Shown here piece after piece: positions 18,065-36,949 of a DNA stretch of 64,000 bases (position 1 is its first letter; each line of letters starts with the position of its first letter). The stretch is from an uncultured Chloroflexia bacterium (lineage in GTDB: Bacteria > Chloroflexota > Limnocylindria > Limnocylindrales > CSP1-4): contig CAVVJT010000010.1 in the NCBI GenBank assembly GCA_963748625.1, positions 1,152,001 to 1,216,000 of the forward strand, given 5' to 3'. The position numbers and the translations under genes are program-made. The notes under the pieces were generated by a model, which made no database searches, was not told the DNA's origin, and saw only the letters and a list, made by a program, of their open reading frames with translations.

Positions 18065-19061
18065 GCACCGCGGCGGGCTTCGGGCTCGCTGACGCGTCGG
18101 CCTTCGGCTTCTTCGGGGCGTTGATCCCAGCCCGTGGCGGAAGCACCTTGAGCGGATCGACCCGCGCGATCTGCTCCTTGGGGAGCTTCATCCGCTTCAC
18201 GACATCGGGCTTGATCCGGAAGGTGGCCATCTCCCACGGCGAGAACAGGCCGTAATGGAGGTGGCAGCCCGAAGCGCGCCCTGTCATCCCCTCGTTGCCA
18301 AGCAGCTGGCCGGCCTTCACGACATCGCCCTTCTTGACGGTGATCCGCCACATGTGGGCGTACATGCTCCGGTAGCCGTTGCCGTCGTCGATGACGATCA
18401 CGATCGGCAGCTGCGGCCACAGGTGCTGGCGATCCAGTCGGTTGTAGTAGGGCTCCAGGTCGCCGGTCCAGCCCATCGCGTCGTCATAGTGACGACCTGC
18501 CGCGAGCACCGTGCCCGAGTGCGCGGCCAGGATTCGGTCGTTGCAGAACGTCGCGAGGTCGACGCCGTCATGGAACGGCTCCCCGTTGACGAGGCGCGAG
18601 CCCCAGGACGTGGGCCCGAACGGCAGCGTGAGGCGAGGATGAGCGAGGGGCCAGCGGTAGCCGTCGAGGGTGTCGATCGCAGGTGCGCGGGTACCGGTCC
18701 ACTCGACCCAGGCACGCTCGGGCGGGACGCCGTGGGGCGTGCTGCCGGTGGCAGGCAGGGCAGCGGCGATGGGCGGCGGGGGTGCAGTGGGGATGGCCGG
18801 GGTGGCTATTGGATCGGCCGATGGCGCCGTCGTTGCAGCTGCGGCCACGGCGATCTCGAGCGTGGCGGGTGAGCCGGCGGGCGTGGGCTCCTGGCCGGAG
18901 ACCGCCTGGCCGACCGGTGTGGCCGACCGCGACCCGGTGACGCCGGCAGCCACGGGGATCACCAGCAGGACTGCGAGCCCAGCAGCGGCACCGAGCAGGA
19001 GGGGGCGCGCGATGATGCGGCGCTGGCGCCGGGCGTGGGGGAACCGGTCGTGACGGGGCAC
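18060..19061 (-). CDS. M23 family metallopeptidase
   Basis: HDGVD, YAH, GNEGMTGRASGCHLHYG and an N-terminal TM segment. Confidence 0.9.
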   Translation of the reverse strand: MPRHDRFPHARRQRRIIARPLLLGAAAGLAVLLVIPVAAGVTGSRSATPVGQAVSGQEPTPAGSPATLEIAVAAAATTAPSADPIATPAIPTAPPPPIAAALPATGSTPHGVPPERAWVEWTGTRAPAIDTLDGYRWPLAHPRLTLPFGPTSWGSRLVNGEPFHDGVDLATFCNDRILAAHSGTVLAAGRHYDDAMGWTGDLEPYYNRLDRQHLWPQLPIVIVIDDGNGYRSMYAHMWRITVKKGDVVKAGQLLGNEGMTGRASGCHLHYGLFSPWEMATFRIKPDVVKRMKLPKEQIARVDPLKVLPPRAGINAPKKPKADASASPKPAAVP

Positions 19062-19250
19062 TCGCGGATTGTGCCGTACATGGGTCGGGGGTGTCGGGCC
19101 GGCGCGCGAGGCAACCGAGGCTGAGCGCCGCGCAACGTGCCTGCATTTGACGGAATCGGGCCGAGGGCCGATGGTGGGGGTCCTAGTCGCCAGTTGTGCC
19201 GGGCTCTCATTCGCCGGTCCGTAGCACGCGACGGATCGGTTTCCCCGCAC

Positions 19251-19538
19251 ATGTCCCGTACCTCCTTTGCTTCCCCTGCCTCGCGCATCGTCGTGAGCAC
19301 CGACGGCTACTTCGACGTCTATGCGCCTGCCGGGCGCCCGACCGATGACAAGCCCGCATACCGCGGTGGACTGTCCGAGCTCGGCACCGGCATCCGCGGT
19401 CTCGACGACCGCCTGGCGGTCCGGCCCGACTCCGCCTTTCTCGCGAACGCCGTCCGTGACTGGTCAGCCGCCAACGGCAGCGCTGCGGTCAGGGGCGAGC
19501 TCGGCGGCGGCCGCGACGGCTCCGATCCCGTGGCGTAG
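19251..19538 (+). CDS. Hypothetical protein
   Basis: 95-aa ORF with plausible codon use. TTGACG-N17-GATGGT promoter at ~19147-19175. Confidence 0.5.
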   Translation: MSRTSFASPASRIVVSTDGYFDVYAPAGRPTDDKPAYRGGLSELGTGIRGLDDRLAVRPDSAFLANAVRDWSAANGSAAVRGELGGGRDGSDPVA

Positions 19539-19607
19539 AGCACGCGCCAGTAGGGGCCCGCGCCTGTCCGGCCCTGGCTCGAGGGCCGGGTATGATCGTG
19601 CCGTCGC

Positions 19608-19683
19608 GCGCCCGTAGCTCAGTGGATAGAGCACCTGACTTCGGATCAGGTGGTCGGGGGTTCGAATCCCTCCGGGCGCGCCA
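19608..19683 (+). tRNA. tRNA-Arg, anticodon UCG, with encoded CCA
   Basis: Acceptor GCGCCCG/CGGGCGC, D arm GCTC..GAGC, anticodon stem CCTGA-CTTCGGA-TCAGG, T loop GGTTCGAATCC. TATGAT -10 at 19591. Confidence 0.97.
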
Positions 19684-19969
19684 TGTCATGAGTCGCGACA
19701 TGTGCGACACATGAGTCGCGACATCTGCGACACATGGAGTCAGCCGGTCGCCTGGGACCCCGGCCATCGGCCGGGGTCTCTTCGCGGGCGAGGAGCCGCT
19801 GGAGGTGGCCCCGGCTGAGGTGGCACTCCGCTGCGGCGGCGGTGACGGACAGCTGCCCTGAGACGACCTTGAGGACGGCCACGCGGTGCTTCGACATGGC
19901 CGGGACTGTCACGCATGTCCCGACTCATGTGTGCCCTATCAGGTGTCACCTATGTCGTGGACTCTGACA
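19684..19969 (-). mobile_element. Internally deleted IS481-family element (MITE) inserted at the tRNA CCA end with a 15-bp target duplication
   Basis: TGT...ACA ends with imperfect IR (TGTCATGAGTCGCGACAT vs TGTCAGAGTCCACGACAT) and repeated subterminal motifs. Transposase N-terminus MSKHRVAVLKVV..LSVTAAA is fused to the C-terminus RDPGRWPGSQATG. Flanked by CCTCCGGGCGCGCCA at 19669-19683 and 19970-19984. Confidence 0.8.
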
Positions 19970-20015
19970 CCTCCGGGCGCGCCACCTCCGGGCGCGCCAC
20001 TGTCCGAGCGCGCCA
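19970..20015 (+). repeat. Tandem copies of the tRNA 3' 15-mer
   Basis: CCTCCGGGCGCGCCA at 19970 and 19985, degenerate TGTCCGAGCGCGCCA at 20001. Confidence 0.9.
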
Positions 20016-20169
20016 CACCAACCTGGGTGCGAGCCGTCGCCGGATGACGAACGGCACCGATAGGGCTTCGCTACGGCAGCGGCTGGGCGGCGCGGGAGCT
20101 CGATCCGCGGTCCGCGCTTCACAGCCGCACGGTCACCCAAGCCCCGCCGGCCCGCGGAGCATCCGGTGA

Positions 20170-21216
20170 TCAGCCGGTTAGGTACCTCGGGTGGATGGTC
20201 CGCTCTTCCCGTGCCGCCAGCGCCAGGGCGTCCAGCGCCACCATGTTCCGGATGCTGTCCTCCGGGAGAACGTCCAGGCCTTCCTCGCCCTGAACGGCCC
20301 GGGCGAAGTGCTCCACCATCAGCCGGTACTCGTCCGCGCCGGCAACCCGGTGCACCTCGCCGGCCTCCGAGTCCTGCTCCCGCCGGGTGTAGAGCGCCTC
20401 GCGCTCCCACGGGATGAAGGCGTCGTGGGGCAGCTCGATGGCGCCCATCGTCCCCGTGACGCTGAACGTCTGCTGCAGGGCGGACACGAACCCGGCCTCG
20501 ATGCCGGCGAGGGCGCCCGTCGGGAATCGCAGCGTCCCAGCAATGTGGACGTCGACGCCGTGGCGATAGACCGCCTGGGCCTGCACGCTGACGGGCTCCG
20601 CCCCCAGCAGCCACCGGGCCACGCCCACCGTGTAGCAGCCGACGTCGAGCAGCGCACCGCCGCCCATCTCCGGGCTCAGGCGGGCGCCGTCCCCCGCCTG
20701 CAGGGCCTCCTCGGCCATGGGGAACGTGAAGGCGGCGCGCACGCCCCGTGGGTCCCCCAGGCCGCCGGCGTCCACCAGCGCCTTGATCGCGCGGCTCCGG
20801 GGGTGGAACCGGTACATGAGGGCCTCCATCAGAAGCCGGCCGGAGGACGTCGCCGCCGCGGCCATCTCCATGGCCTGCTCCGCGCTGCAGGCGAGGGGCT
20901 TCTCGCACAGCACGTGCTTGCCGGCGGCGAGGGCTCGCAGCGTCCACGGATGGTGGAGGTGGTTGGGCAGCGAGACGTAGACGGCGTCCACCTCCGGGTC
21001 CTCGAGGACCTCCTCGTAGCGGCCGTAGACCCGCTCGAACTGGTGCCGGGGCGGCGGCGGCGCCTGGGGCGCGGCCGTCGCCGGAGGCGATCCTCCGGCC
21101 GAACGGGTCCCCAGGGCCTGCAGCCGGCCGTTGTCGGACACCGCGATGGCCGGGATCATGCACACGCGGGCGATCGTGGAGTGGCCGAGCACACCCCAGC
21201 CAATCCGCTCAGGCAT
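20170..21216 (-). CDS. Gfo/Idh/MocA family oxidoreductase
   Basis: WGVLG..IA, DAVYVSLPNHLH, GKHVLCEKP and GGGALLDVGCY. Confidence 0.92.
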   Translation of the reverse strand: MPERIGWGVLGHSTIARVCMIPAIAVSDNGRLQALGTRSAGGSPPATAAPQAPPPPRHQFERVYGRYEEVLEDPEVDAVYVSLPNHLHHPWTLRALAAGKHVLCEKPLACSAEQAMEMAAAATSSGRLLMEALMYRFHPRSRAIKALVDAGGLGDPRGVRAAFTFPMAEEALQAGDGARLSPEMGGGALLDVGCYTVGVARWLLGAEPVSVQAQAVYRHGVDVHIAGTLRFPTGALAGIEAGFVSALQQTFSVTGTMGAIELPHDAFIPWEREALYTRREQDSEAGEVHRVAGADEYRLMVEHFARAVQGEEGLDVLPEDSIRNMVALDALALAAREERTIHPRYLTG

Positions 21217-22855
21217 CCATCGCCTCGACGCATCCACCCTTCTCCATCGACCGTGTGGCAGCCTCCAGGATGGCGACCACCTTCACCGAATCCGCGAGGG
21301 GCGCCACCAACGGCTCACCGGTCAGGAGGTGGTCGGCCAGGTTGCGGTGGAACCCGAACGGGTCACGTGGCGGCATGGCCATCGGCATGGAGGTGACCTG
21401 CCCGTCGCGCTGCCGTCGGAGAAGGAGCAGCTCGGGCGCCATCTCGGTTGCCGGGATCGGGTCTTCGCGGTAGTGAACCAGGGGATCGGCCCGGAGAGCG
21501 ACGAGATCCCGCCAGCGACCCTCGATCGCACCCTCCGTGCCCAGGGCGTACCACTTCGGCTTGCGGACCGCCGCGATGTCCGAGTGGATGAACTCGGCCT
21601 CGAAGCCTCCCTTGAACCGGACCTGGATCCGCTCCTGGTCGGCGCTGGTCACGTCGTGCCACACGCGCTTGTGGCGGGTCCCGATCACGGCCTCCACCCG
21701 GTGCGGCATGAGGCTCACGATCCAGTCCAGGTAGTGGGCGCCCCAGTCCCAGGATGTGCCACCCGATACCGGCGAATGGGAATGCCAGAAGCCGCACGGG
21801 TGGTGGAAGCCCCCGACGAAGGTCTCGAGCTGGAAGAGCTCGCCGATGAGGTGCCCCTCGACCGCCTCCCTGACGGCGAGGTAGTCCGGGTCCCATCGTC
21901 GGTTCTGGTGGCAGCCCAGGTGGACCTGCATGGCCTGCGAGACCTCGACCATCCGATCCGTCTCGCGCCGGCCCAGCGCCAGCGGCTTCTCGCAGACCAC
22001 GTGCTTGCCGGCCGCCATGAGCTGCACGGACAGCGCGGCGTGGGTGTTCGGCGGCGTGGCCACGATGACGAGGTCGATGTCCGGGTCGTCGGCCAGCAGT
22101 TCAGGCGCCTCGTGGACCGTGACCCCAGGAAAATCGAGCGCGGCCTGGTGCCTGCGCGGGGGTGCGATGTCGCAGACGGCCCCGAGCGTGAGCCCGGTCG
22201 TCTCACCCACCCCCGTCCCGTGCATCTGCCCGAGCCAGGGCGCATAGCCGAGGATCCCGACTCGGACCTCCGGGGGCTGGGCGATCGCACCGCCGAGGCT
22301 GCGCAGCCAGCGGTAGAGGAGCTGCTGCACCACGGGATGGCCAAGGTCCCCCAGCGTGGTGCAGACGGCGCGGCCCGCGCCGTGCGAGCGGACGGTCATC
22401 ACCGGGCGGCGCCCGTACTGCCAGTCGGCGTGCAGGACCGTCGTGGTGCCCTCGTCACGTGGCCGCACCGCCAACCTGGTGCGTCCGACAAGGAAGGACC
22501 GCTGCATGCGCTGCGCCAACGGATGTCCTGGGTCCTCCCAGCTCACACGCAGCTCCGTCGCCGGCAGCAGCGGCTCGACCCCTACCCCGAACACCGACGG
22601 CGGGAGGCCTGCGTCATCGGCGACGTGCAGCCACCCCTTGCCCGCGCGCACGAGATCCGACAGGACGGTCACATCCTCCGGCGGCAGGGCCGATCCCGCG
22701 GTGAGGACGACATCGATCCCGTCCGTGGCGGCCGGCAGCGCCTCCGAGCGCTCCAGCTGCGTGTGGGAGGTCCGCGCGAGATAGCCGGCCAGCGGTTCCA
22801 GTGATGCGTCGGCCGGACCCACCCAGAGGATCCGAACCACGGAGTGCACGATCAC
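21209..22855 (-). CDS. Gfo/Idh/MocA oxidoreductase with N-terminal ThuA/GATase-like domain
   Basis: GAGRAVCTTLG, ATPPNTH, GKHVVCEKP, HQNRRWD and DWGAHYLD. Start uncertain (22855 or 22936). Confidence 0.85.
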   Translation of the reverse strand: MIVHSVVRILWVGPADASLEPLAGYLARTSHTQLERSEALPAATDGIDVVLTAGSALPPEDVTVLSDLVRAGKGWLHVADDAGLPPSVFGVGVEPLLPATELRVSWEDPGHPLAQRMQRSFLVGRTRLAVRPRDEGTTTVLHADWQYGRRPVMTVRSHGAGRAVCTTLGDLGHPVVQQLLYRWLRSLGGAIAQPPEVRVGILGYAPWLGQMHGTGVGETTGLTLGAVCDIAPPRRHQAALDFPGVTVHEAPELLADDPDIDLVIVATPPNTHAALSVQLMAAGKHVVCEKPLALGRRETDRMVEVSQAMQVHLGCHQNRRWDPDYLAVREAVEGHLIGELFQLETFVGGFHHPCGFWHSHSPVSGGTSWDWGAHYLDWIVSLMPHRVEAVIGTRHKRVWHDVTSADQERIQVRFKGGFEAEFIHSDIAAVRKPKWYALGTEGAIEGRWRDLVALRADPLVHYREDPIPATEMAPELLLLRRQRDGQVTSMPMAMPPRDPFGFHRNLADHLLTGEPLVAPLADSVKVVAILEAATRSMEKGGCVEAMDA

Positions 22856-23107
22856 GCTGACCCCTTTGTGCCCGGACCCAGGCCGGAAGCTCTCGCCCGT
22901 GGTTGCTGCAGGCGGACCCGAGTTGCCGCCAATCATGCGCCACGACGCTGGGCCCTGTCCGGGCGTCCGGATGCGATGAGGTCGCGGGCCGAGCCATTGC
23001 AGAGCGTCGCGCCAGGCTCAGGGTGGGCGCTGCCCTGCCCACCTCCCCGGTTCGGCGGGCCCCACCTGCGGTTGGCGGCGACGCGCGACACTGGCGGCGA
23101 CGGGCAC

Positions 23108-23136
23108 TTGACAGTCCCAGCCCGCTGGGCTACGGT
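23108..23136 (+). promoter_or_regulatory. Sigma70-type promoter
   Basis: TTGACA (23108-23113), 17-nt spacer, TACGGT (23131-23136). Confidence 0.7.
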
Positions 23137-23142
23137 TACTGT

Positions 23143-23230
23143 GCTCGAAGGGGCTTCGAACATCTAGTGATTTGGCCGGTGTTTACATTGGCCAGAGCAA
23201 CTAGTGATCGCGGTTCCTTCGGGCGTTTTT
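23143..23230 (+). ncRNA. Candidate 88-nt rod-like small RNA
   Basis: Starts 6 nt after the -10. The whole sequence folds into one imperfect hairpin with many G-U pairs and ends in GTTTTT. Locally AT-rich. Confidence 0.6.
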
Positions 23231-23277
23231 CGTTGGTGCCCGGCGCGGACGCGACCCGTGCACAACGCCCCCCGGCC

Positions 23278-24171
23278 TCACGGGTTGCCGCTGAACGTGT
23301 CGCACCCGTCCGGCGACTTCGCCTGGTAGCCGGCCGTGAACCACTTCTGGCGCTGGGCGGACGAGCCGTGGGTCCATGTCTCGGGGCTGACCTGCCCCTG
23401 CATCTCCTGCTGGATCCGGTCGTCGCCGACGGCCGACGCGGCATCGAGGGCATCGGCGATCTCGGCTTTTGTGAGCGGCACGAGGTAGCCCGTCGCGGCC
23501 GCGTTGCTTGCCCACACGCCGGCGTAGCAGTCGGCCTGGAGCTCAGTCCGGACCGATTGCCCTGCGGCCCCCTCCTGGCTCGTCCCGCCCGACAGCGTCC
23601 CGACCAGATCCTGGACGTGGTGGCCGTACTCGTGGGCCAGTATGTAGGCCTGGGCGAACGGACCACCCTTGGCGCCGAACTTCGAGCGCAGCTCGTCGAA
23701 GAACCCGAGGTCGATGTAGACGAACTGGTCGGCGGGACAGTAGAACGGGCCGCTGGCCGACGATGCGACGCCGCAGCCAGTGTTGACCTGGTCGGTGAAG
23801 AAGCGCGTCCTAGCCACGACGTACTGCTGTCCCGAGGCGGCGAACGCGTCGGTCCAGTAGGCCTGGATGCTGTTGACGTAGCCGACGATCCGGCAATCCT
23901 CGCTGGCGTTGGCGTCGGCCCCGGTCTCGCAGGCCGCCAGAGCGCTGCTGGCGGGACCCGGCTCCTCGGCGCCACCGCCGATCGTCTGGCCGACGAGTCC
24001 ACCGACCGTCTCGCCGGTCTGAGGGCTGCCGCCCAGGAGCACCCAGACGAGGGCGACGATGATCCCGATCCCGCCGCCCCCGCCGACCATCAGGCCTCGC
24101 CCGCCGACCCGCGAGCCGCGGACGTCCTCGACCTGCGAGGGATCGAGCTTTGCGCCCGGGTTGAACGGCAT
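23278..24171 (-). CDS. Neutral zinc metallopeptidase (YpfJ/KPN_02809-like)
   Basis: GPFYCPAD, AHEYGHHVQ, ELQADCYAG, VGDDRIQ and WTHGSSAQR. Confidence 0.92.
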   Translation of the reverse strand: MPFNPGAKLDPSQVEDVRGSRVGGRGLMVGGGGGIGIIVALVWVLLGGSPQTGETVGGLVGQTIGGGAEEPGPASSALAACETGADANASEDCRIVGYVNSIQAYWTDAFAASGQQYVVARTRFFTDQVNTGCGVASSASGPFYCPADQFVYIDLGFFDELRSKFGAKGGPFAQAYILAHEYGHHVQDLVGTLSGGTSQEGAAGQSVRTELQADCYAGVWASNAAATGYLVPLTKAEIADALDAASAVGDDRIQQEMQGQVSPETWTHGSSAQRQKWFTAGYQAKSPDGCDTFSGNP

Positions 24172-24204
24172 CTCAGAGCCTCCTGCGGGTGGAGCCCGCG
24201 GGGC

Positions 24205-24294
24205 TCAGATCTTGATGACGCCGACCAGGAAGAGGATCACCACCACGATGACGATCACGCCGATGATTCCGATGCCACCGTTTCGTCCGTTCAT
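24205..24294 (-). CDS. 29-aa single-TM small protein
   Basis: MNGRNGGIGIIGVIVIVVVILFLVGVIKI in an otherwise empty gap. Confidence 0.55.
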   Translation of the reverse strand: MNGRNGGIGIIGVIVIVVVILFLVGVIKI

Positions 24295-24361
24295 GAATCG
24301 AGGGATCGCATGGGGCCTCCGGGTCGTGACGGGAGCCGGTTGGACGGGGCTGCTGTCGAAC

Positions 24362-24733
24362 TCAGCCCGGGGCCTGCTGCGGTCCGTCGCTGCTGGCGGC
24401 GTCGACGATGATCCTGAGGGTCCCGTCCGCCTGCCGCTGGTAGACGACGACGTACTTGCTCTGGCCGCTCGGGCCGACGATCCGACCGACATCCACGACC
24501 AGCGAGCCCCCCTCGATCACCTCGTCGGTCACGAATCGCAGGTTCGCCGGCCCGCCGGCGACTATGTTGCGAAGGGCGGCGTCGACTGCCGCGCGTCCAC
24601 GGATGATCGGCTGGCCTTGGAACAGGAGTCGCGCGTCGTCGGCGTAGAACGCCGCCAGCCGCTCGCCATCCTGCGTCGCGAATGCCTCGCCGAACCCCGC
24701 GTTGATCGCATCCAGCTCGTCTTCAATCGCCAC
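24362..24733 (-). CDS. NTF2-like/DUF4440 (YybH) protein
   Basis: LAAFYADDA, IRGRAAV and KYVVVYQRQADGTLRIIVD. Confidence 0.85.
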   Translation of the reverse strand: MAIEDELDAINAGFGEAFATQDGERLAAFYADDARLLFQGQPIIRGRAAVDAALRNIVAGGPANLRFVTDEVIEGGSLVVDVGRIVGPSGQSKYVVVYQRQADGTLRIIVDAASSDGPQQAPG

Positions 24734-24895
24734 CCTGTCACCCTCTCGTTCGAACCTGGCGTCCTGAGCCGATCCGGCGAACCCCCGATCCGCAGCCGAG
24801 ACGCGAGCCAGGTGAAGATCATGCCGCCTGCGCGCGACCTGCGTTCAAGATGTGCGTTGTTGCTCCTGCGCGCCAAATGCCCTCCGGGCGCGCCA
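24729..24895 (+). repeat. Cassette-end repeat B ending in a tRNA-Arg 3' copy
   Basis: TTGTTGCTCCTGCGCGCCAAATG followed by CCCTCCGGGCGCGCCA (24880-24895). The ~165 bp are homologous to 25101-25260. Confidence 0.85.
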
Positions 24896-25100
24896 TGTCA
24901 TCTGCGACACATGTGGTCAGCCCGTCGCTCGAGACCCCGGCCATCGGCCGGGGTCTCTCCGTGTGTTGCGCCAGTACCACCTGCCAGGCTCGATCAGGTG
25001 CGTGGAGGGGATCTCGCCCGTCTCGAGGGCGACGACCGTGAACTCCTGCTCGTCGACGATGGCGAGGACCCTCCGGCACGAAAGGGCCGCGCCCACCGCT
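24896..25100 (-). mobile_element. IS481-family remnant (end plus transposase C-terminus)
   Basis: Begins TGTCA directly after the tRNA-end copy and matches 19720-19780. Encodes RVLAIVDEQEFTVVALETGEIPSTHLIEPGRWYWRN..DPGRWPG. Confidence 0.75.
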
Positions 25101-25260
25101 GCCACCCTGTCGCCTTTCTCGTGCGAAGCCGGACGCCCTGTGCGGACCCGGCGACACCCCGATCCTCGGCCGAGACCCGAGCCGAGTGTGGATCACGCCC
25201 CTTGCGGACCACGTGCGTTGCTGTTCGTGCCCGCCCGGGGGCCCTCCTGTCCGCGCCCCG
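25101..25260 (+). repeat. Diverged second copy of the cassette-end repeat
   Basis: Colinear with 24729-24895 (GCCACCCTGTC..TCTCGT.CGAA..CCCGATCC..GCCGAGAC..GTGCGTTG.TG) and ends in decayed GCCCTCCTGTCCGCGCC. Confidence 0.75.
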
Positions 25261-25299
25261 CAACTCGGCTCCGCGGGGTCGGCGCCCTCGACGACCTGC

Positions 25300-26823
25300 C
25301 TACCGGAGGAGAGCGCCCAGGTCGGCTCGAAGCAGCTTGCCGACCGAGCTCCTCGGAAGCCGGTCCAGAAACGTCACCGAGGTTGGCACCTCGTGCGCGG
25401 CGAGGCGGCCGCGAGCGAACTCGAGGAGTTCGGCCTCGGCGAGCGAGCTCCCGTTCCGCAGGACGACGATCGCCGCCCCGACCACATCGCCATCGGGGGT
25501 GGTCATCGGCACGACCCCGGCGTCGGCGACCGCCGGATGGGACATGAGCTGGCGCTCGACATCGCCGGGATAGACCGTCCGACCGGCGACATGGAAGCTG
25601 GCGGCGACGCGATCGACAATCCAGATATCGCCCTCGGCGTCCATGCGTGCCGCGTCGCCGGTACGGAGCCAGCGATCTGGGATCAGCACCTCACTGGTCT
25701 CGGCCGGTCGACGCCAGTACCCGGACATGACGTTCGGGCCACGCGCCAGCAGCTCGCCAGTCTGGCCAGGGTCGACATCGTGTCCGTCGGGATCAACGAT
25801 CCGGACGTCCACGAACAGCGGCGGTCGACCAGCCGACCCGACCTTCCGGAGCGAACGCTCGGCGTCGACAAGGAGCACGACTGGCCCCGCCTCGGATAGC
25901 CCGTAGCCCTGGACCAGGGCGACCCCGCGGTCGTGGTACGCACGGATCAACCGCTCGGGTACCGGTGCGCCCCCAGTCAGGATGAACCTGATGCTGGACA
26001 GATCGGCCACCGGCCATCGCTCGGCGTGCATCAGCTCGTCAAGCACGTCCGGGTTGCCGAAGCCGACGCTGACATGATGCCGCTCGATGGCCTCGAGGAG
26101 GCCGCCACCGGTGACGTCGTCGGGCACGATGACCGTGCCGCCGAGAAAGAGCACGGGCAGGACGTTCACGCCCGTGCCTCCTGCTCGGAAGAACGGGGCT
26201 ACAGCGACCGTCACGTCGTCGCCCCGGAAGTCAGCGCGGGAGAGCACGTTGACCACATTCCAGGTCACGTTGCCGTGGGTAAGCATCACCCCCTTGGGGG
26301 ACGCGGTCGTGCCGGAGGTGTGGGGCAGGAACAGCAGATCGTCGAGCGCGATAGCCGCGTCGAGCGCGTGCTCCGGCGACGCCGCAACGAACGCCTCGTA
26401 GCTGACGGCGCCCGCCACGGTGTCTGGGCCGACGACGAGGCGGTGGCGGACGGAGACGGGCGCGCGCGTGGGCGCCACAGCGAGATGCTCGATCAGCACG
26501 GTGGGCTCGGCGTCCTCCAAGATCAGGGCACGCACGTCCGATGCCAAGCGGTGGTTGACCGGGGCAAGGGCGGCGCCAAGCGTGCCGACCGCGAAGAACG
26601 CCTCAAGGAACGCGCCATGGTTCGGGCCAACCCAGGCGACGCGATCACCCCTGCCAACCCCGAGGCGGCTGAGGCCGCCCGCCAGTCTGCGGATCCGCTT
26701 GGCAAGCTCGGCGTAGGTAATCGCACGATCGCCGGTGATGATCGCTAGACGGTCTGGATTGACCCGCGCTCGTCGTTCGATCCACGAGCCGACACCGACG
26801 ATTGACTCCGCCTCGAAGCTCAT
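25300..26823 (-). CDS. Acyl-CoA synthetase (AMP-binding, MenE/FadD-like)
   Basis: HTSGTTASPKG, QGYGLSEAGP, GPNVMSGYW, WLRTGD and PRSSVGKL. Confidence 0.9.
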   Translation of the reverse strand: MSFEAESIVGVGSWIERRARVNPDRLAIITGDRAITYAELAKRIRRLAGGLSRLGVGRGDRVAWVGPNHGAFLEAFFAVGTLGAALAPVNHRLASDVRALILEDAEPTVLIEHLAVAPTRAPVSVRHRLVVGPDTVAGAVSYEAFVAASPEHALDAAIALDDLLFLPHTSGTTASPKGVMLTHGNVTWNVVNVLSRADFRGDDVTVAVAPFFRAGGTGVNVLPVLFLGGTVIVPDDVTGGGLLEAIERHHVSVGFGNPDVLDELMHAERWPVADLSSIRFILTGGAPVPERLIRAYHDRGVALVQGYGLSEAGPVVLLVDAERSLRKVGSAGRPPLFVDVRIVDPDGHDVDPGQTGELLARGPNVMSGYWRRPAETSEVLIPDRWLRTGDAARMDAEGDIWIVDRVAASFHVAGRTVYPGDVERQLMSHPAVADAGVVPMTTPDGDVVGAAIVVLRNGSSLAEAELLEFARGRLAAHEVPTSVTFLDRLPRSSVGKLLRADLGALLR

Positions 26824-26975
26824 CGACGCAGGATGCCAGACGACGGCAAGGGGTCGATCGCACACAGGGCCACCTTCGCCGTCTGTTGTTCCCTCGCGCC
26901 CATCGGGCCCACAGGCGTGGCCGCTCATCGGGGTCCGCCGCACGTGCGAGGACGGCGCTCGACCCGGCTCCGTGG

Positions 26976-27680
26976 TCACCGTGCGCCCGCCGCCATCATC
27001 GAGGGCTCGCTTGCAGGTGCCGTCGCACCGGCAGGTGCTGAGGCGGCCGACGACGAATTGAAGCCCTTGGCGATCAGCCACACAGCCAGGACCATCTCCT
27101 GCAGCGCGAGCGGGGCCATGAGGACATCGAGCGAGAGCTCGAACATGTTCCCAAGCGGCGGCACGATGTAGAGCACGGCCCCCACGAGCCCCCAGGCGGA
27201 CAGCCACCGGGGCACCAGCCGTGACTGGTAGAGCAGGACGTAGAACATCAGGGCGCCGAGCGCGAACGGCACGGCGATCAGCTGGTCCCACGTCACGGCC
27301 ACGGTCGTGCGCACGAGGCCGGCGAGCGGTGCCGCACCAGGTTCCGTGCTGAGCGCGATCAACAGCAGCCAGCCGAGCGCGCCGACGATGTAGATGACCG
27401 TCTCGATCGCGCCCCGGAACACGACGTACCCCATGGCCAGCGTCTCGTTGTACCGCTTGCCGACCGGCCAGAACACGACCGGAACCATCGCGAGCGCGAA
27501 GCCTGCCAGCAGGACGAGCAGGGCTCCGACGGCCAGCTGGTTCGGCTGCTCGGCGACCTGGGCCAGGTAGGCGGGCCCCGTCAGGACGCCATCCGTGACG
27601 ACCGCGCTGAGGACCAGGGTGACCGTGCCGATGATGTACAGCACGCCGATCGCGACGGCGGCCTTCCGATCCGCGCTCAT
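26976..27680 (-). CDS. DUF4386 membrane protein
   Basis: AVAIGVLYII, LAMGYVVFRG, SRLVPRWLSAWG and QEMVLAVWLIAKGF. Confidence 0.85.
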   Translation of the reverse strand: MSADRKAAVAIGVLYIIGTVTLVLSAVVTDGVLTGPAYLAQVAEQPNQLAVGALLVLLAGFALAMVPVVFWPVGKRYNETLAMGYVVFRGAIETVIYIVGALGWLLLIALSTEPGAAPLAGLVRTTVAVTWDQLIAVPFALGALMFYVLLYQSRLVPRWLSAWGLVGAVLYIVPPLGNMFELSLDVLMAPLALQEMVLAVWLIAKGFNSSSAASAPAGATAPASEPSMMAAGAR

Positions 27681-27729
27681 GCCGGGCCTCCCTGGTGCTG
27701 TCGGCGATCGTTCGGTTCGTGCTCATGCT

Positions 27730-28020
27730 CTATCTCCTGATGTGGTCGACATCGACGTGGACAAGCGTTGTCGGGGGGTCGGGCTCGTCCCGGGTGACCG
27801 AGACGAGCGGCAGGCCGAGGTCGCGCACGCGCTGGAGCAGCCCGTGAAGTGCGGCCTGGTCGGCGACCGGACCGCCGATGAGCGTGGTGCCGTCGCCTTC
27901 ACGGCTGACGGTCAGCCCGTCGAACCACGCGGCCCAGCGCGCGTCGAGGTGCCCGGCCAGCCGGATCTCGTAGCGTCCGGCCCCGGGCCGATCTCCTTCC
28001 GGGGTGTGTCGCTCGGTCAT
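27730..28020 (-). CDS. Small conserved protein of the type found beside MalT-like LuxR/DUF4386 genes
   Basis: YEIRLAGHLDARWAAWFDG...DQAALHGLLQRVRDLGLPLVSV. Confidence 0.75.
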   Translation of the reverse strand: MTERHTPEGDRPGAGRYEIRLAGHLDARWAAWFDGLTVSREGDGTTLIGGPVADQAALHGLLQRVRDLGLPLVSVTRDEPDPPTTLVHVDVDHIRR

Positions 28021-28219
28021 TCCGCTCCTCGTGCGTGTCGCCATCTGGACCTCCGACTGGCAACGCCGACCGGAGTCACTGGACACACCGTGGAGGCGGA
28101 CGTGATGAGCGCGCATCACCACACTTGATGAGCGGCGTGATGATTCGCCAGCGAGACGAATGCACCCCGGGGTCACTGTCCGTGCACGTGACGCGACCCG
28201 GGGGAGCCGGGGCAAACGA

Positions 28220-30988
28220 CTACGCCGTGGGCCGGCGGTCCCGGTTGCGCGAGAGCAGGCCGAGCTCGCCGGCACGGCGGACGGCTGCCCTCCGGCTGTT
28301 CACGCCGAGCTTGGCGTAGATGCTCCTGGTGTGCGACCGCACGGTGGCCACGGACACGGTGAGCTGGCCTGCGATTTCCGGGCCGTCGAGATCGCTCTCC
28401 AGGAGGCGCAGGACCTCGAGCTCGCGTTCGCTGAGCGGTTCGATCAGCGACTGCTTGACGGTCGCTCCTCCCTCCACCGTGACGACCGCGGCCAGGAGTC
28501 GGCGCACGTAGCCCGGAGCCATCCGCTCCTTCGCCGCCAGCTTCAGCAGCGCCGCCATGGGCGGCCCTTCGTCGATGAAGACGCGGACGTAGCCCTCCGG
28601 CTCGGCCAGGGCAACCGCGCGCGCCAGCGAGGCGAGCGCACCCGCCGGATCGTCGCTGGCGTGACGGGCGATCGCCTGCACGACGAGGATGTCGATCGCG
28701 CTCCCGCGGCGCCCACCGTCCTCCGCAGCCGCGAGCAGGCGCTCCGTGAGCTCGATCGCCGCACCGACGCCGTCGTCGGCACGGTCTCGCATTCCGTGCG
28801 CCAGGAGCAGCCTCGCCAGCGTGGCGTGCTCGAATTCGTGCAGGTAGCTGAGCTCGTCCGTGGCCGCGACACGACGCGCCTGCGCCCAGCCCCATGCCGC
28901 CGACAGGTTCCCCTGGGCGATCCACACCCTCGCCATCACGGCGGCGACAGGGCGCACATCGGGGGAGAAGTCGCTCGCATACAGGCGCTCGGCCTCCTCG
29001 AGAAGCTCGAGCGCGCCATCAGGATCCCCTTGCGCCTGTCGGATCCGGGCCGCCGCGACACGCGACCTGTACGGGTTCTGCGACAGGCCGCTCTCCTCAC
29101 CCAGTTCCCGGCTCAGCAACAGGTGCTGCGCCGCGGTCTCGAGGTCGTCGCGCTCGCGGAACAGCTCGCTCATGCCTGTGTGCATGTCCGCCGCCCCCCG
29201 CTGCGCGGGCGCGCCATGTCCGGTCGCAAGCCGCAGTCCCCGCTCGTACGTGCGCATCGCATCGCGGAGACGACCCTGGGCGATCTGGATGTCGGCCTGG
29301 GCGATTGCGCCACCGATGACGTCCGAGAGGTGACCGGCCTCCTGCAGGTTCGCCATGCTCTCGGCGTACGAACGGAGCGCTGCCTCGAGATCCCCACGTG
29401 CCCAGGCAGCGAGTCCCAGCAATCCCGCTGCCGCACCACGCCCGAGCTGATCGTCCTCGTCAACGAGGTCGAGCACGTGTTGGGCATGGGTCCTGGTGGC
29501 GGCCACGTCGCCGTGGGCCATGGCCAGGGCCGCACGGTAGAGGGCGATCGAGCCCGGCAGACGGCGAAACGCATCCTGGTCGACGACGACCATCGCAGTC
29601 GCTCGGGCCCGAGGTTCATCGGGTCCGTCGGCCGTCGTATCCAGCCAGTGTTCGGCGTCTCGCAGTCGGGCATCAACGCCCTCGACCCTGCCTCCCTCCA
29701 GGAGTGTCGCGGCATACGCGACGCTCAGCACGGGCCTGACCCGGATCAGCTCGTCGGGAAGTGCCGCAAGCCACCGGCGCGCGGTGGCCGCCTGCTCCTT
29801 CTGGAACGTCGCCGGGATCGCGAGCTCCACCAGGTCCGCCGCCCGTTCGAAATCCTCGCCGGCCAACGCGTGGCGGATCGCCTCAGACCGGTCACCGTGC
29901 TCCTCGTACCACTCGCAAGCCCGCCGGTGCAGCTCCGGCACCCGCCCGGGTTGCTCGTCCAGGAGGCGGGCCCGCAGCACGTCGGCGAAGAGGTGGTGGT
30001 AGCGGTACCACTGGCGCCGGTCGTCGAGCGAGACCAGGAACAGGTTCCCTCGATCGAGCGCCTCCAGCGTGGCCCTGCCTCCGCCCTGGCCGGTGACGGC
30101 GTCGCACAACGGGCCGCTGAGCCGGCTCAGGAGCGACGTCTCCAGCAGGAAGCTCCGGACCCGTTCGGGCAGCCGATGCAGGACCTCTTCGACCAGGTAG
30201 TCGACGATGTACCGGTCGTCCCCGGCGAAGCCCGCGATGAAGCCGGTGACATCGTCGCGCCCCTGCATCGACAACGCCGCCAATTGGAGAGCAGCGATCC
30301 AGCCTTCGGTACGCTGCGCAAGCGCGGCGACGTCTCCCGAAGCGAGATCCAGCCCCATCACCTCGTTGAGGTAGGCGGTGGCCTCGTCCGGCGTGAAGCG
30401 CAGATCGGCGGCGCGGATCTCGACGAGCTCGCCACGCGCCCGTAGACGGGCCAGCGGCAGCGCGGGATCGGCGCGCGTCGTGAGCACCAGGTGGACCTGT
30501 GGGGGCAGGCGCTCCAGCAGGAACGCCATCCCGCCGTTGATGTCGTGCGAGTCGATCACGTGGTAGTCGTCGAGCGCCAGCACGACCTCGTCCGGCACCG
30601 CGTCGAGCTCGTTGAGCAGCGTGGCGAGGATCGTCTCGATCGGCGGTGGCTGAGGCACCTGCAGGAGGGACAGCGCACGTGCGCCGATCCCCGGCACCAC
30701 CGTCTGCAACGCAGCGATCAGGTAGGTCCAGAGGGAATCCGCTTCGTTGTCTCCAGGGTCGAGGGACACCCACGCCACTGACCGTTCACCAGCAGGAGTG
30801 ACTGCCAGCCACTCGGCCAGGAGCGTCGTCTTGCCGAAGCCGGCCGGGGCGGAGATGAGCGTCAGCTTCGACTCGGCCCCCCGGTTCATGCGCTCGATGA
30901 GCCGCGGGCGTACGACCAGGGCGCGTCGCAGCCTGGGCACGTGGAGTTTGGTCTCGAGCAGCGGGCCTGCGTTGTCCGGCGTTGTCAT
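28220..30988 (-). CDS. MalT-like STAND ATPase / LuxR transcriptional regulator
   Basis: LLETKLHVP, APAGFGKTT, LDDYH, TEGWIAALQL, WYRYHHLF and a C-terminal LSERELEVL HTH. Confidence 0.95.
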   Translation of the reverse strand: MTTPDNAGPLLETKLHVPRLRRALVVRPRLIERMNRGAESKLTLISAPAGFGKTTLLAEWLAVTPAGERSVAWVSLDPGDNEADSLWTYLIAALQTVVPGIGARALSLLQVPQPPPIETILATLLNELDAVPDEVVLALDDYHVIDSHDINGGMAFLLERLPPQVHLVLTTRADPALPLARLRARGELVEIRAADLRFTPDEATAYLNEVMGLDLASGDVAALAQRTEGWIAALQLAALSMQGRDDVTGFIAGFAGDDRYIVDYLVEEVLHRLPERVRSFLLETSLLSRLSGPLCDAVTGQGGGRATLEALDRGNLFLVSLDDRRQWYRYHHLFADVLRARLLDEQPGRVPELHRRACEWYEEHGDRSEAIRHALAGEDFERAADLVELAIPATFQKEQAATARRWLAALPDELIRVRPVLSVAYAATLLEGGRVEGVDARLRDAEHWLDTTADGPDEPRARATAMVVVDQDAFRRLPGSIALYRAALAMAHGDVAATRTHAQHVLDLVDEDDQLGRGAAAGLLGLAAWARGDLEAALRSYAESMANLQEAGHLSDVIGGAIAQADIQIAQGRLRDAMRTYERGLRLATGHGAPAQRGAADMHTGMSELFRERDDLETAAQHLLLSRELGEESGLSQNPYRSRVAAARIRQAQGDPDGALELLEEAERLYASDFSPDVRPVAAVMARVWIAQGNLSAAWGWAQARRVAATDELSYLHEFEHATLARLLLAHGMRDRADDGVGAAIELTERLLAAAEDGGRRGSAIDILVVQAIARHASDDPAGALASLARAVALAEPEGYVRVFIDEGPPMAALLKLAAKERMAPGYVRRLLAAVVTVEGGATVKQSLIEPLSERELEVLRLLESDLDGPEIAGQLTVSVATVRSHTRSIYAKLGVNSRRAAVRRAGELGLLSRNRDRRPTA

Positions 30989-31162
30989 GTCTCGTGCTTC
31001 ACGGCAGCGGTTCGTGGATGCGCCGTCTGCCGATGCGATGCGCGCCCACGCATTGTGGGCTTCCTGCGGGTCATCTACGTGGACAACAGGCAACCTTCAG
31101 CACGACCGTGCTCGGGGGTCGGCATGCGCCCGATCATCGGTCAGCCCGACGCTGCCCCAACC

Positions 31163-31223
31163 TTGTTGTTCCTGCGCGTCCAACGCCCTCCGGGCGCGCC
31201 AACCTCATGCGTCGCGACATGAG
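31163..31223 (+). repeat. Cassette-end repeat C with a tRNA-Arg 3' copy and IS481-end remnant
   Basis: TTGTTGTTCCTGCGCGTCCAACG, then CCCTCCGGGCGCGCCA (31186-31201), then TCATGCGTCGCGACATG, which resembles the IS end TCATGAGTCGCGACATG. Confidence 0.85.
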
Positions 31224-31250
31224 CACGACGCCCGTTGCGGTCTTGGGCCC

Positions 31251-32255
31251 TTAGATGTTGAGCCCCACGCCGATCGCGGTTCCCAGCATGATGACCGCGT
31301 CCGCCTCCCCGGCCATCGCCGCGGCCGCGGCATCACCGTCGTTGAGGATCTGGACGGTGACCGGGTAGCCGAGCCGATCCATGAGACGGTCGGCAAGCCG
31401 TCGCGGGAGCGGGACCGTCCCGAGGGACCCGTAGAGTCCCGGCTGCCCGGCGAGCGGCTGCCCGGTCGCAGCCACGTCTGCGGCGATCGCGAGCCCGGCC
31501 GACGACACGCTCAAGCCCTGGACGACGTCGGCGGCCGCGTCGGCGAGGAAGTCGGCGAACGCACCAGCCCGTGGGCCGAGCGGTGGGGCCACCGCCGCCA
31601 TGGTCTCGAGGGTGAGGCATCGCCCACCGTGAACGCTGGCGAGTCCACGCTTGATCCCCGTGAGACCGGCATCGACGAGCACCGCCCGCCCGTCAGGCAG
31701 CCTCGTCGCGGCGCCCCGCAGGGCCAGCGATCCGGGATCGTCGGCCAGCCGGAGCTGAACCTCGCCCGCACCCAGACGGGGCAGCCAGGCGGTCGCGGAC
31801 GCGACCAGTTGTCTGCCGAGCACACCCGATGCGATCCCGCCCCCCAGCACGATCCGGCGCACGGCCGCCCAGCGCTCCCAGTGCTCGGCCGGCCAGTCGG
31901 GGCGTGCCGCGCGCGCATCCTGGGGCCCGAGAACGAGCATCGCGACGAGCCCCGCGAGCGCCACCCCGAGGTCGTCGGCTAGCGCCACGGCCGTGACGTC
32001 ACCCGCTTTGACCATGGCGTCGAGAGCCCTCGGGTACGGCGCCGCGGCGAGAATGACGTCCGACCCAAGCCCGTCGCGCACGGGGGCGAGATCGGTGCCC
32101 GGGAGCCGCTCACGGACCCGCCGGGCGATACCGACGCTCGACAGCCAGTCGAAGGCGCGCGCCCCACGGAGCCCCGCCGGCAGGTCCAGCAGGTCAGGGA
32201 TGCCCACGATGATCGAACGGTTCACGCTCGGCGTGAAGCAGCGCACTTCCGCCAT
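31251..32255 (-). CDS. Divergent ROK/actin-like-fold protein
   Basis: IVLGGGIASG, LVDAGLTGIK, ILNDGDAAA and IMLGTAIGVG. Confidence 0.6.
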   Translation of the reverse strand: MAEVRCFTPSVNRSIIVGIPDLLDLPAGLRGARAFDWLSSVGIARRVRERLPGTDLAPVRDGLGSDVILAAAPYPRALDAMVKAGDVTAVALADDLGVALAGLVAMLVLGPQDARAARPDWPAEHWERWAAVRRIVLGGGIASGVLGRQLVASATAWLPRLGAGEVQLRLADDPGSLALRGAATRLPDGRAVLVDAGLTGIKRGLASVHGGRCLTLETMAAVAPPLGPRAGAFADFLADAAADVVQGLSVSSAGLAIAADVAATGQPLAGQPGLYGSLGTVPLPRRLADRLMDRLGYPVTVQILNDGDAAAAAMAGEADAVIMLGTAIGVGLNI

Positions 32256-32277
32256 CGCTGGAGTATGCGCCGCGGAC

Positions 32278-32307
32278 TTGTCCGGTTCCTGTGCGCCCGA
32301 CGCGCCA
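32278..32307 (+). repeat. Degenerate cassette-end repeat D
   Basis: TTGTCCGGTTCCTGTGCGCCCGACGCGCCA resembles the site C motif with an internal deletion. Confidence 0.4.
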
Positions 32308-32385
32308 CTGCAGCCGGCGAGGTGCTGGGCGCCGAGGTCGGCGATCGGCCCGTCCGCGCTCCCCGCTCAGCGCATCCGCCCAGCC

Positions 32386-32661
32386 TCACGTGTTGTCGCG
32401 GCCGCCCGATCGGGGCGCTGCCGGCGAGGTACGACCCCCAGGCGAGACGATCGGCACCGACGTGATGCCGACGACCTCGTGACCGGCCAGCGCCTCGATG
32501 AACGGCTGGAAGCTGCCGCAGACCAGGCAACGCAGGATCGAGCCCTCGACGGCGACCTCGCTGACTCCCGAGGCGCGCTCGACCTGGCGGGCCGGGGGCG
32601 TGCCCACGAAGCTGACCTCCACGCGGTGGATCCGAGGCTCCTCGAACATGCCCAGCAGCAT
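32386..32661 (-). CDS. Small protein resembling the C-terminal domain of ABC-2 ATP-binding proteins
   Basis: HRVEVSFVG..GVSEVAVEGSILRCLVCGSFQPFIEALAGHEVVGITS. Confidence 0.5.
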   Translation of the reverse strand: MLLGMFEEPRIHRVEVSFVGTPPARQVERASGVSEVAVEGSILRCLVCGSFQPFIEALAGHEVVGITSVPIVSPGGRTSPAAPRSGGRDNT

Positions 32662-32786
32662 GGAGGTACTTCCGGACCTGCGCCATCCATGGAATTCGTG
32701 ACCGGAACGCGGGTCGGCCGGGTCGGGCGAGTCGGCCGGGGATCGCCCCGCCTGGGCGGCACTTCCGGTGGTCTGTCTCGGCTTCG

Positions 32787-35084: not shown

Positions 35085-35258
35085 GGTGCACCCCACGTTA
35101 CTCCGGCCGTCGGCGGCCCGGGGCCGCGTCTGTCGTTGCCGGTGGCCGGCTCGCTCATGACCGAATCACGAAACCCATCGATGCCGTCGTACGCCGCCGC
35201 GCCCCAGGCTGGCGTCACCAACGCGGGCACAGGGTCCGCGTGATCGAAGGAGGAAGAC

Positions 35259-35984
35259 ATGAACGACCTCAGGGCCGCGCGGCTCACAGGCGTGCTGTTC
35301 ATCATCGCGACGGTGGTGAACCTGCTCGGCGCGGCGGTCCGGCCAAGCCTGACCGGCACCGACTACCTCGTCAGGTTTTCAGCGGATCCGGACCGGGTCG
35401 CGGCCAGCTCGCTGTTGCTGCTCATCGCGGCGTTCGCGTGCGCGGGGATCGCCGTCGCGATGTACCCGGTCGTCAAGCGGACGGACACGGGCCTCGCACT
35501 CGGATCGGTCGTCTTCCGGACGCTGGAGGCGGTCATGTACATGGTGGCCGTAGTGAGCCTGCTGTCCCTGTCGACACTGGGCCAGGCCTCCATCGCGGCA
35601 GGAGCCGCCGACCAGACAGCGCTGGGCGCCATCGGCGGCCTGCTCCTGAGCCTGCGTGAACACGCCACCATGGCCGGAGTATTCGCCTTCTGCCTCGGCG
35701 CGTTCCTGTACTACACCGCCTTCTTCCGGTCGCGGCTCATTCCCAGGTGGCTCTCCGGCTGGGGGATCGTGGCGATCGGCATGCTGGCTGCCGCGAACGT
35801 GCTGGCGCTGTTCGCCGGTCGCTCCGTGACGGACTACCTGCCCATGGCGCTGCCGATCTTCCTGCAGGAGATGGTCCTGGCGGTCTGGTTGATCGCCAAG
35901 GGGTTCAGCCCGGTCCACGCCGCTGCGCCTGAGGCCGACGTCGCGGTCGGCCGGACGGCCGGCACGCTCGCAGCCGCGAGGTGA
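35259..35984 (+). CDS. DUF4386 membrane protein
   Basis: Paralog of 26976-27680 (SRLIPRWLSGWG, QEMVLAVWLIAKGF). AGGAGG RBS. Confidence 0.85.
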   Translation: MNDLRAARLTGVLFIIATVVNLLGAAVRPSLTGTDYLVRFSADPDRVAASSLLLLIAAFACAGIAVAMYPVVKRTDTGLALGSVVFRTLEAVMYMVAVVSLLSLSTLGQASIAAGAADQTALGAIGGLLLSLREHATMAGVFAFCLGAFLYYTAFFRSRLIPRWLSGWGIVAIGMLAAANVLALFAGRSVTDYLPMALPIFLQEMVLAVWLIAKGFSPVHAAAPEADVAVGRTAGTLAAAR

Positions 35985-35989
35985 CCCAC

Positions 35990-36916: not shown

Positions 36917-36949
36917 CGCGGGCACCGGCGTCGCGAGGCCCGGCGGGCG

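Follow-up and report, generated by a model that had tools for sequence, protein, structure and literature searches.

How does the 3′ end of one tRNA gene come to be repeated, kilobases downstream of that gene, between blocks of unrelated genes? The question is raised by a stretch of 64,000 nucleotides from an uncultured Chloroflexia bacterium of the order Limnocylindrales (assembly GCA_963748625.1, contig CAVVJT010000010.1, positions 1,152,001 to 1,216,000; the whole stretch is referred to as the window). The terminal 16 bases of its tRNA-Arg(TCG) gene, at 19668–19683 on the + strand and designated T hereafter, recur exactly at 24880 and 31186. An earlier reading of the sequence (the original prediction) had interpreted the copies as the shared ends of non-autonomous cassettes accreted by a trans-acting recombinase. 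The analysis described here favours, with a probability of roughly 60%, the view that window 19684–36920 arose by tandem accretion of gene blocks, integrated site-specifically behind tRNA-Arg(TCG), with joints presumably made by a large serine recombinase.

Besides the exact 16-mers, two exact 15-mers (19970–19984 and 19985–19999) and a decayed copy (20000–20015), all overlooked originally, were found close to the tRNA. The 15-mer occurs five times in the 4,626,308-base genome, and all five occurrences are at the tRNA-Arg(TCG) locus and on the + strand. Three T copies flank or come after a 286-bp dead insertion sequence (IS) of the IS481 family, and two close a conserved 39-bp site composed of a 23-bp motif and the 16-mer; T is the half-site common to the whole array. 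The non-tRNA motif upstream of the distal copies, TTGTTGYTCCTGCGCG, occurs exactly twice in the genome (24857 and 31163). A site profile, trained on 38 sites from 15 arrays of relatives and then run on the window, recovered both 39-bp sites and gave weaker matches at two decayed ones, about 25215–25253 and 32278–32307 (Table 1). These two are genuine sites as well, and the latter (site 4) is confirmed in position by a relative, G074 (G-numbers denote relatives' genomes), in which the tRNA CCA on contig C18 is directly joined to the homologue of window 32308 onward. Two weaker candidates put forward earlier were not supported: 23262 reached a profile E of 17, and 44981–45010 gave only a wrong-strand match (E 1.9). 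The proposed duplication around site 2 was recovered as an alignment of 24729–24845 with 25101–25219. An Rfam scan of 19000–37500 detected nothing besides the tRNA.

The same sites are widespread among relatives. In a search of 70 genomes of the genus, the arm (the 23-bp motif, TTGTTGTTCcTGCGCGCCCgAnG in consensus, located at the far end of a block) followed by T was found with up to three mismatches in 30 genomes, clustered and co-oriented; the reversed pattern, used as a control, gave no match in any of the 70. In each of the 15 array regions that includes a tRNA, the sites come after tRNA-Arg(TCG). The blocks in these arrays measure 1–7 kb, with one of 16.5 kb in G006, and many are single genes of 1–1.7 kb. 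In the consensus of the 38 sites, conservation extends from position −22 through the CCA and then ends, the most variable positions being the two bases immediately left of T. Nearly 'empty' units of about 60–85 nt were also seen, in which T is followed almost directly by another arm and T with no gene between (G059 contig C2:4303–4362, locus L023; G044, L014:14477–14560).

Blocks behave as units of gain and loss. Since the tRNA on G074 contig C18 is joined to the homologue of 32308, window 19684–32307 represents a 12.6-kb insertion relative to that contig, with site 4 as its right border. A 4.1-kb block of G049 sits exactly between the tRNA and the block that is first in G053. The strain comparison suggested originally for this locus, there called tRNA-Arg(UCG), therefore came out as foreseen, with blocks gained or lost and breaks falling exactly at the sites. 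Block identity was further set against that of flanking or upstream core genes in the same genome pair. A 1,480-bp amidohydrolase block, first in G053 and second in G049, is 97.8% identical from T to T between the two, compared with 77.9% for the upstream core. A 1.05-kb block common to G059 and G076 (core 80.4%) is 92–93% identical between them, and its two copies within G076 are 98.7% identical. Block 4 of the window, which recurs in several arrays, is 90.6% identical to G074 contig C18 (core flank 79.2%), and the Gfo pair of block 1 (20157–23007) is 91.5% identical to G074 contig C19 (core flank 76.4%). These figures show that whole blocks move horizontally between species. The variable arm bases travel with the block to their left, which places the joint within T or at its edge. 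G074 carries two versions of the tRNA-Arg(TCG) locus (L013 on contig C18 and L132 on contig C19) with 87.6% identical upstream core, and this 57% complete bin may mix two related organisms.

What kind of enzyme would join DNA at T? The sequence after T, where undisturbed, is often GAACAAC, the reverse complement of GTTGTTC in the arm (class I); class II arms begin GGTTGC and pair with TGMCAACC after T. A complete site is an imperfect palindrome of about 45 bp centred on the CC that begins T. When arm was scored against arm at every possible centre, the centre on CC gave 17/22 for class I (next best centre 9) and 15/22 for class II (next best 10); two tRNA-Pro sites gave 11/21 and 10/22 (next best 8). 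Sites of large serine recombinases are imperfect dyads of 40–50 bp around a central dinucleotide, an organization that classes I and II share. A dyad centred on CC also accounts for tRNA identity beginning exactly at CC. Alternatively, motif and T might mimic an acceptor stem, a mini-tRNA hairpin read as folded DNA or RNA. The TCG consensus does fold as a 9-bp GC hairpin (−20.8 kcal/mol), the left strand of which equals the tRNA 5′ acceptor strand. The tRNA-Arg(CCT) sites described below fold in a different register, and the double-stranded dyad is preferred because it covers the same facts plus the outer heptamers. To the left of class II sites, 40 bases are conserved, and a gene start there was considered and rejected: read from the site, frames are open for 23–49 codons at five of the seven sites, and the longer ones in G076 (363 codons) and G085 (143 codons) lack the conserved peptide.

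Candidate enzymes were found beside T in relatives. The T of tRNA-Arg(TCG) on G074 contig C19 lies 2 nt from the end of a recombinase gene (L132:3838–5322, minus strand), the 495-aa product of which has Resolvase and Recombinase domains; the next T, with a class II arm, follows 43.6 kb on. The sole NCBIfam match of this recombinase is CcrB, at 29.7 bits against a cut-off of 900. In G084 and G053, array copies of T are followed by C-terminal remnants of this type of recombinase, and a frameshifted copy lies 280 nt past a motif site in G059. Among 20 further loci fetched from the genus, 19 contain a homologue, one of which runs off its contig. In all 18 judgeable loci, 2–120 nt separate the C-terminal end of the recombinase from the 3′ end of an intact tRNA (11 loci, 8 Arg-CCG and 3 Pro-CGG) or from a lone 16-nt copy of such an end (7 loci). 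A recombinase beside the site is a feature of relatives only. The window's own genome has, on contig C8:27357–28927 (L127:7357–8927), a 519-aa stop-to-stop frame for a large serine recombinase that converges on tRNA-Arg(CCG), the matched coding end lying 50 nt from the tRNA 3′ end. Two cargo proteins of 466 and 493 aa were considered as possible novel recombinases and set aside; they match no Pfam family and by eye resemble secreted repeat proteins.

Tyrosine recombinases fit less well. Phage_integrase, Resolvase and rve have no match on the 1.4-Mb contig that contains the window, which extends to the whole contig the original statement that no recombinase is in view. The arrays of five relatives have no tyrosine recombinase (PF00589) within them or alongside. 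Genome-wide, G076 and G059 each encode two, 48–53 kb apart on one contig, which we take to be putative XerC and XerD. The bases left of T differ between the sites and the tRNA, leaving no identical overlap of 6–8 bp, which a tyrosine recombinase would need, and making such an enzyme unlikely. Five array genomes were also searched for Y1 transposase and reverse transcriptase, and neither turned up.

Arrays of this kind are not confined to tRNA-Arg(TCG). A second array in the same genome lies behind tRNA-Arg(CCT) (contig C4:13893–34071; L123, L124) and has six sites over 20 kb, with an arm of their own, conserved over about 50 bp, before each 16-base end copy; sites of this type were matched across the genus. 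Its cargo includes MerB-like, DUF1697, enoyl-CoA hydratase, MarR, sulfatase and LysR genes. On contig C7:822779–836777, the terminal 16 bases of tRNA-Pro(CGG) are repeated behind their own gene, and serine recombinase genes adjoin lone tRNA-Pro(CGG) copies in relatives (L135, L136, L140, L145, L146). The same array type therefore exists at a non-Arg tRNA.

The tRNA 3′ end is also the target of a second, independent element. The 286-bp remnant directly after the tRNA retains the first ~50 codons of a transposase gene fused to the region past its stop, and both halves match full-length copies of about 1316 bp in relatives, where they are about 1.2 kb apart; no full-length copy is present in this genome. 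The full-length element codes for a 400-aa transposase with HTH, rve and LZ_Tnp_IS481 (IS481 leucine zipper) domains. The G006 copy scores 248.3 bits against NCBIfam transpos_IS481 (NF033577; cut-off 224), the window having remnants only. The termini are TGT...ACA, the ends that IS481-family elements carry according to PMC11406308. In a sample of 80 public loci with the transposase, 73 had at least 150 nt past the transposase stop, and a tRNA 3′ end lies about 50–90 nt from that stop in 56 of the 73, always convergent. The tRNAs concerned are those for Arg, Val, Gly, Ser, Asn, Glu, Gln, Pro, Ala, Asp, Tyr and Leu. Enough flank was available in 50 of the 56 loci, and in 40 of these the last 15 nt of the tRNA are repeated (up to two mismatches) directly past the far IS end. 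Both terminal inverted repeats and a target-site duplication are thus present. The element inserts just after the CCA, in one fixed orientation, duplicating 15–16 bases. It shares its ends and a transposase above the family-model cut-off with the IS481 family, and differs from it in the near-exclusive insertion past the CCA of many tRNAs, the single orientation and the 15–16-bp duplication. No description of a tRNA-specific IS481-family element, and no report of arrays like these in Limnocylindria, was found in full-text searches of a limited literature collection. Hosts of the element are Limnocylindrales and, at 62–66% protein identity, Actinomycetota such as Microbacterium and Solirubrobacterales.

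Insertion after the CCA with a 15–16-base duplication accounts for the T copies at 19970–20015, the fragment at 24896–25078 (89% over 63 nt to 19722–19784) and the stub at 31202. A stub of the latter type also follows T in G044 and on G074 contig C19. Tandem T copies separated by a few leftover IS-end bases occur in G053, G076, G059 and G084. One IS copy in G006 is flanked by tRNA-Val and, at its opposite end, by the T of tRNA-Arg, showing that recombination between IS copies occurs. Target duplication by IS481, which had been named as a possible cause of all copies, thus explains the tandem 15-mers and the stubs at 24896 and 31202, and does not explain the motif-bearing sites.

Table 1. Features of the tRNA-Arg(TCG) array in the window. 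Positions are window coordinates.
Feature	Position	Strand	Basis or remarks
tRNA-Arg(TCG)	19608–19683	+	ARAGORN (single tRNA in window); Rfam tRNA, 73.9 bits
Internally deleted IS481-family element, 286 bp	19684–19969	-	Terminal inverted repeats TGTCATGAG... and ...CTCTGACA both kept
Two exact 15-mers of tRNA end and one decayed 16-mer	19970–20015	+	IS target-site duplication and footprints of earlier IS visits
Block 1	20016–24856	-	Pfam; left-end remnant and four genes
Block 1: Gfo/Idh/MocA oxidoreductase	20170–21237	-	Pfam
Block 1: ThuA-like + Gfo	21209–22936	-	Pfam
Block 1: Zn-metallopeptidase	23278–24171	-	Pfam
Block 1: SnoaL-like	24362–24733	-	Pfam
Site 2: class I motif (23 bp) and exact T	24857–24895	+	Profile E 6e-13 (24853–24902)
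IS fragment: T-side end and last ~35 transposase codons	24896–25078	-	Translation against 400-aa L002 transposase
Decayed second copy of the arm preceding site 2, with decayed site at ~25215–25253	25101–25253	+	77% over 119 nt; profile E 0.08 (25215–25238)
Block 2	25254–31162	-	Pfam
Block 2: AMP-binding acyl-CoA synthetase-like	within 25300–27726	-	Pfam
Block 2: DUF4386	26976–27680	-	Pfam
Block 2: ORF without assigned family	27730–28275	-	
Block 2: MalT-like LuxR regulator	28220–31093	-	Pfam
Site 3: class I motif and exact T	31163–31201	+	Profile E 4e-15 (31159–31210); orthologous site and stub in G044
IS stub, ~30 nt, end adjoining T	31202–31232	+	78% to IS 23-nt subterminal repeat
Block 3	31233–32277	-	Single ORF 31251–32255, 334 aa
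Site 4: decayed motif, T reduced to its last bases	32278–32307	+	G074 contig C18 junction alignment, synteny; profile E 0.12 (32285–32303)
Block 4	32308–36920	mixed	Identity to G074 contig C18 (see text)
Block 4: STAND/LuxR regulator	32787–35096	-	Pfam
Block 4: DUF4386	35259–35984	+	Pfam
Block 4: Zn-dependent dehydrogenase	35981–36916	+	Pfam

The cargo consists of ordinary accessory metabolism and regulation, and it is unrelated from block to block, as the original prediction had it. The single open reading frame (ORF) of block 3, previously labelled 'ROK-like', matches no Pfam family at E 0.01. All genes from 20170 to 35096 point back toward the tRNA, as had been noticed, but this is no rule of the arrays: the last two genes of block 4 are on the + strand, and ORFs over the 15 arrays are divided into 53 on + and 62 on -. 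Block 4 ends with motif and T in G074 and G007, and this end is missing from the window. At the left end of block 1, the remnant 20016–20041 bears a weak resemblance to the recombinase-side arm of relatives. Between the ThuA-Gfo and peptidase genes of this block, 23130–23215 is a possible promoter with operator: it has lower G+C, a TTGACA box and CTAGTGAT twice. The two paralogous DUF4386 genes, which belong to different blocks and opposite strands, contain a 55-nt inverted repeat with 85% complementarity (27059–27113 and 35853–35907).

The observations can be assembled into a model in which a block would circulate as a closed form. Its arm, T and first bases (GAACAAC or TGMCAACC) would together make the palindrome of about 45 bp that serves as attP, and the 3′ end of a tRNA gene would be attB. 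A recombinase of the large serine type would cross the two over at the CC that starts T, our presumed crossover point. The incoming half-site would rebuild the tRNA 3′ end and the former 3′ end would be displaced to the far side of the new block, so that repeated insertion would stack blocks with the newest adjoining the tRNA. Window blocks without a recombinase would be fossils, or satellites needing a helper that presumably acts in trans. The IS481-family element homes independently to the base past the CCA of tRNAs and T copies. Because its insertion point falls exactly between T and the recombinase gene, it has probably contributed to the erosion of such genes and of left ends. Of the non-autonomous cassettes originally proposed, the block boundaries and the lack of a nearby enzyme stand; the serine recombinase found in cis beside the tRNA end in some relatives means that at least some blocks are decayed or satellite integrative elements.

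Several findings weigh against this model. The tRNA-Arg(CCT) sites have no clear dyad centre, scoring 12/22 at both +1 and −1 and 11 at 0. GAACAAC is kept after T at only about 9 of about 55 junctions, ragged left ends are frequent, and the left ends of the two G076 copies of the 1.05-kb block differ over the first ~32 nt. Part of block 2 (26965–31072) also occurs in G041, at 85.6% identity, without a neighbouring T. Class I sites (GAACAAC arm) were never seen next to an intact recombinase, so that the link to the enzyme rests on class II sites and other tRNAs. A Resolvase search at E 1e-5 found no match in the array genomes G049, G043 and G085, which are 90–93% complete. The window's own genome has one full recombinase of the subfamily, at tRNA-Arg(CCG) and 44% identical to the G074 enzyme, and none for tRNA-Arg(TCG). 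Serial stacking needs the tRNA-side junction to be reused as attB, which serine recombinases normally do not do. Among 20 public runs, the best contains 0.13 of the sampled words. Four runs yielded over 19000–37500 only short contigs of relatives (90–99% identity) with no joint at a T site, and no excision or circular junction was seen in these short contigs, which speak neither for nor against excision or circles. In view of these weak points, the serine-recombinase accretion model is held at the probability given at the outset, and three rival explanations are kept beside it.

A bolder form of the model can be put forward only tentatively, and we would sooner bet against it than on it. The arrays might be a working serine-recombinase platform for gene capture, doing the job of the integron with other components. 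In it, single-gene circles with nothing but the 45-bp palindromic site, half of it a copy of the terminal 16 bases of a tRNA, would be inserted, excised and shuffled at the 3′ ends of at least three tRNA genes (Arg-TCG, Arg-CCT and Pro-CGG) by a recombinase in trans, and the IS, competing for the same base, would lock blocks in place by splitting the site.

A first rival replaces the serine enzyme by another recombinase in trans, be it the host Xer pair, a tyrosine recombinase of a plasmid or phage that the assemblies lack, or an enzyme that recognises the site as a single-stranded hairpin, in the way the integron integrase treats attC. Arrays do exist in genomes without any Resolvase match, and those of G076 and G059 contain recent duplicates, yet these genomes have only their two tyrosine recombinases. 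The hairpin described above would suit such an enzyme, the more so since changes in the left strand of the stem are mostly C to T and would preserve G-T pairing. On the other hand, six arrays have no tyrosine recombinase in or beside them. Variability peaks just left of T, where the sites are also unlike the tRNA, so that no common overlap is left, and the site is unlike dif. The missing Y1 transposase and reverse transcriptase, the different folding register of the tRNA-Arg(CCT) sites and the serine recombinase genes that adjoin T all speak in the same direction. We consider this explanation unlikely.

Site-specific recombination might also be dispensed with altogether, the 39-bp sites and the tRNA being mere conserved repeats between which blocks are swapped by homologous recombination after DNA uptake. 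Conserved anchors are available on both sides (tRNA and core genes; 39-bp sites). The recurrence of block 4 in several arrays, the imprecise left ends and the lack of circular forms in the relatives' short contigs all agree with such exchange. It leaves unexplained, however, why every block has a site with a T that matches the resident tRNA, at the separate Arg(TCG), Arg(CCT) and Pro(CGG) arrays alike, why the dyad is centred on the start of T and why recombinase genes adjoin T. Moreover, 16–39 bp is short for efficient homologous exchange. This explanation, too, is improbable.

That the IS481-family element alone made all T copies, through target duplications, composite transposition, recombination between IS copies and adjacent deletions, has in its favour the preference for tRNA ends (56/73 loci) with duplication (40/50) of nearly the length of T, the IS ends or stubs after T at 19684, 24896, 31202 and in many relatives, the recombinant G006 copy and the pairs of T copies separated by a few IS bases. 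It is nonetheless very improbable: the IS end ...GACA ought to come before any T made by duplication, where motif sites have a conserved non-IS arm, G071 has five clean sites and no IS, the transposase occurs in 14 of the 70 genomes and the sites in 30, and arm-T dyad symmetry is not a transposase product.

Soil Limnocylindrales are abundant and uncultured. If the serine-recombinase model is true, the arrays would be a main route by which metabolic and regulatory genes are traded in this genus (blocks 91–98% identical, core about 78–80%). Stacking of minimal one-site cassettes at tRNA ends by a serine recombinase would extend the cassette principle past integrons, and would offer compact, naturally orthogonal pairs of site and enzyme, one per tRNA. 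An IS481-family element that recognises almost any tRNA 3′ end would likewise raise the question of how a DDE transposase recognises its target.

Among known systems, the staphylococcal SCC/SCCmec elements come close. Their large serine recombinases integrate them at the 3′ end of the conserved gene rlmH; a short direct repeat with the end of that gene marks every element boundary, elements pile up in tandem, and some members lack a recombinase and are served in trans. SCC composite islands and the present arrays are therefore alike in the serine recombinase, the 3′-end target, the boundary repeats, the tandem stacking and the recombinase-less members, and a faint further likeness is the CcrB match of the G074 recombinase, far below the cut-off. 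They differ in that the target here is several tRNA genes rather than rlmH, the arrays reside in an uncultured Chloroflexota lineage, single-gene blocks of 1–1.7 kb are common, and the recombinase is only remotely related.

A different parallel is provided by the tycheposon islands of Prochlorococcus. As the preprint describes, elements in these islands are separated by partial tRNAs, newcomers push older ones inward, and past events are recognisable from integrase fragments and stray pieces of tRNA. Tyrosine recombinases are listed there for 910 of 937 elements, a minority having a large serine recombinase; attachment sites comprise about 40 nt of the tRNA, and many elements carry replication genes (bioRxiv 10.1101/2020.12.28.424599). 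The arrays described here likewise repeat the tRNA 3′ part in tRNA orientation at their boundaries, differ between relatives by blocks that break at the repeats, and include a recombinase in some members (G074 contig C19; remnants in G084 and G053) and none in the window. In contrast to tycheposons, their sites join a 16-nt tRNA part to a conserved non-tRNA arm in a palindrome, and their blocks are mostly cargo only.

Integrons, to which the original prediction likened the array, also consist of small co-oriented cassettes in series, with one palindromic site at one end and a fixed primary site, and their cassettes are common to different species in different orders. Three integron features, however, are not found here. 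The IntI-type tyrosine recombinase is absent from the window contig and from beside the five relatives' arrays. Where attC is defined by structure, with the cores RYYYAAC and GTTRRRY, the site here has a constant sequence of 39 bp, tRNA end included, and outer heptamers (GTTGTTC and GAACAAC) that do not match those cores. Integron cassettes are mostly promoterless and in one orientation, whereas the ORFs here lie on both strands, and the blocks carry regulators of their own and often hold several genes. 'Integron-like' is therefore an analogy only. New relative to known arrays are the 16-nt tRNA half-sites set in palindromes, the single-gene blocks, the use of several tRNAs, the host lineage, and the IS481-family element at tRNA ends.

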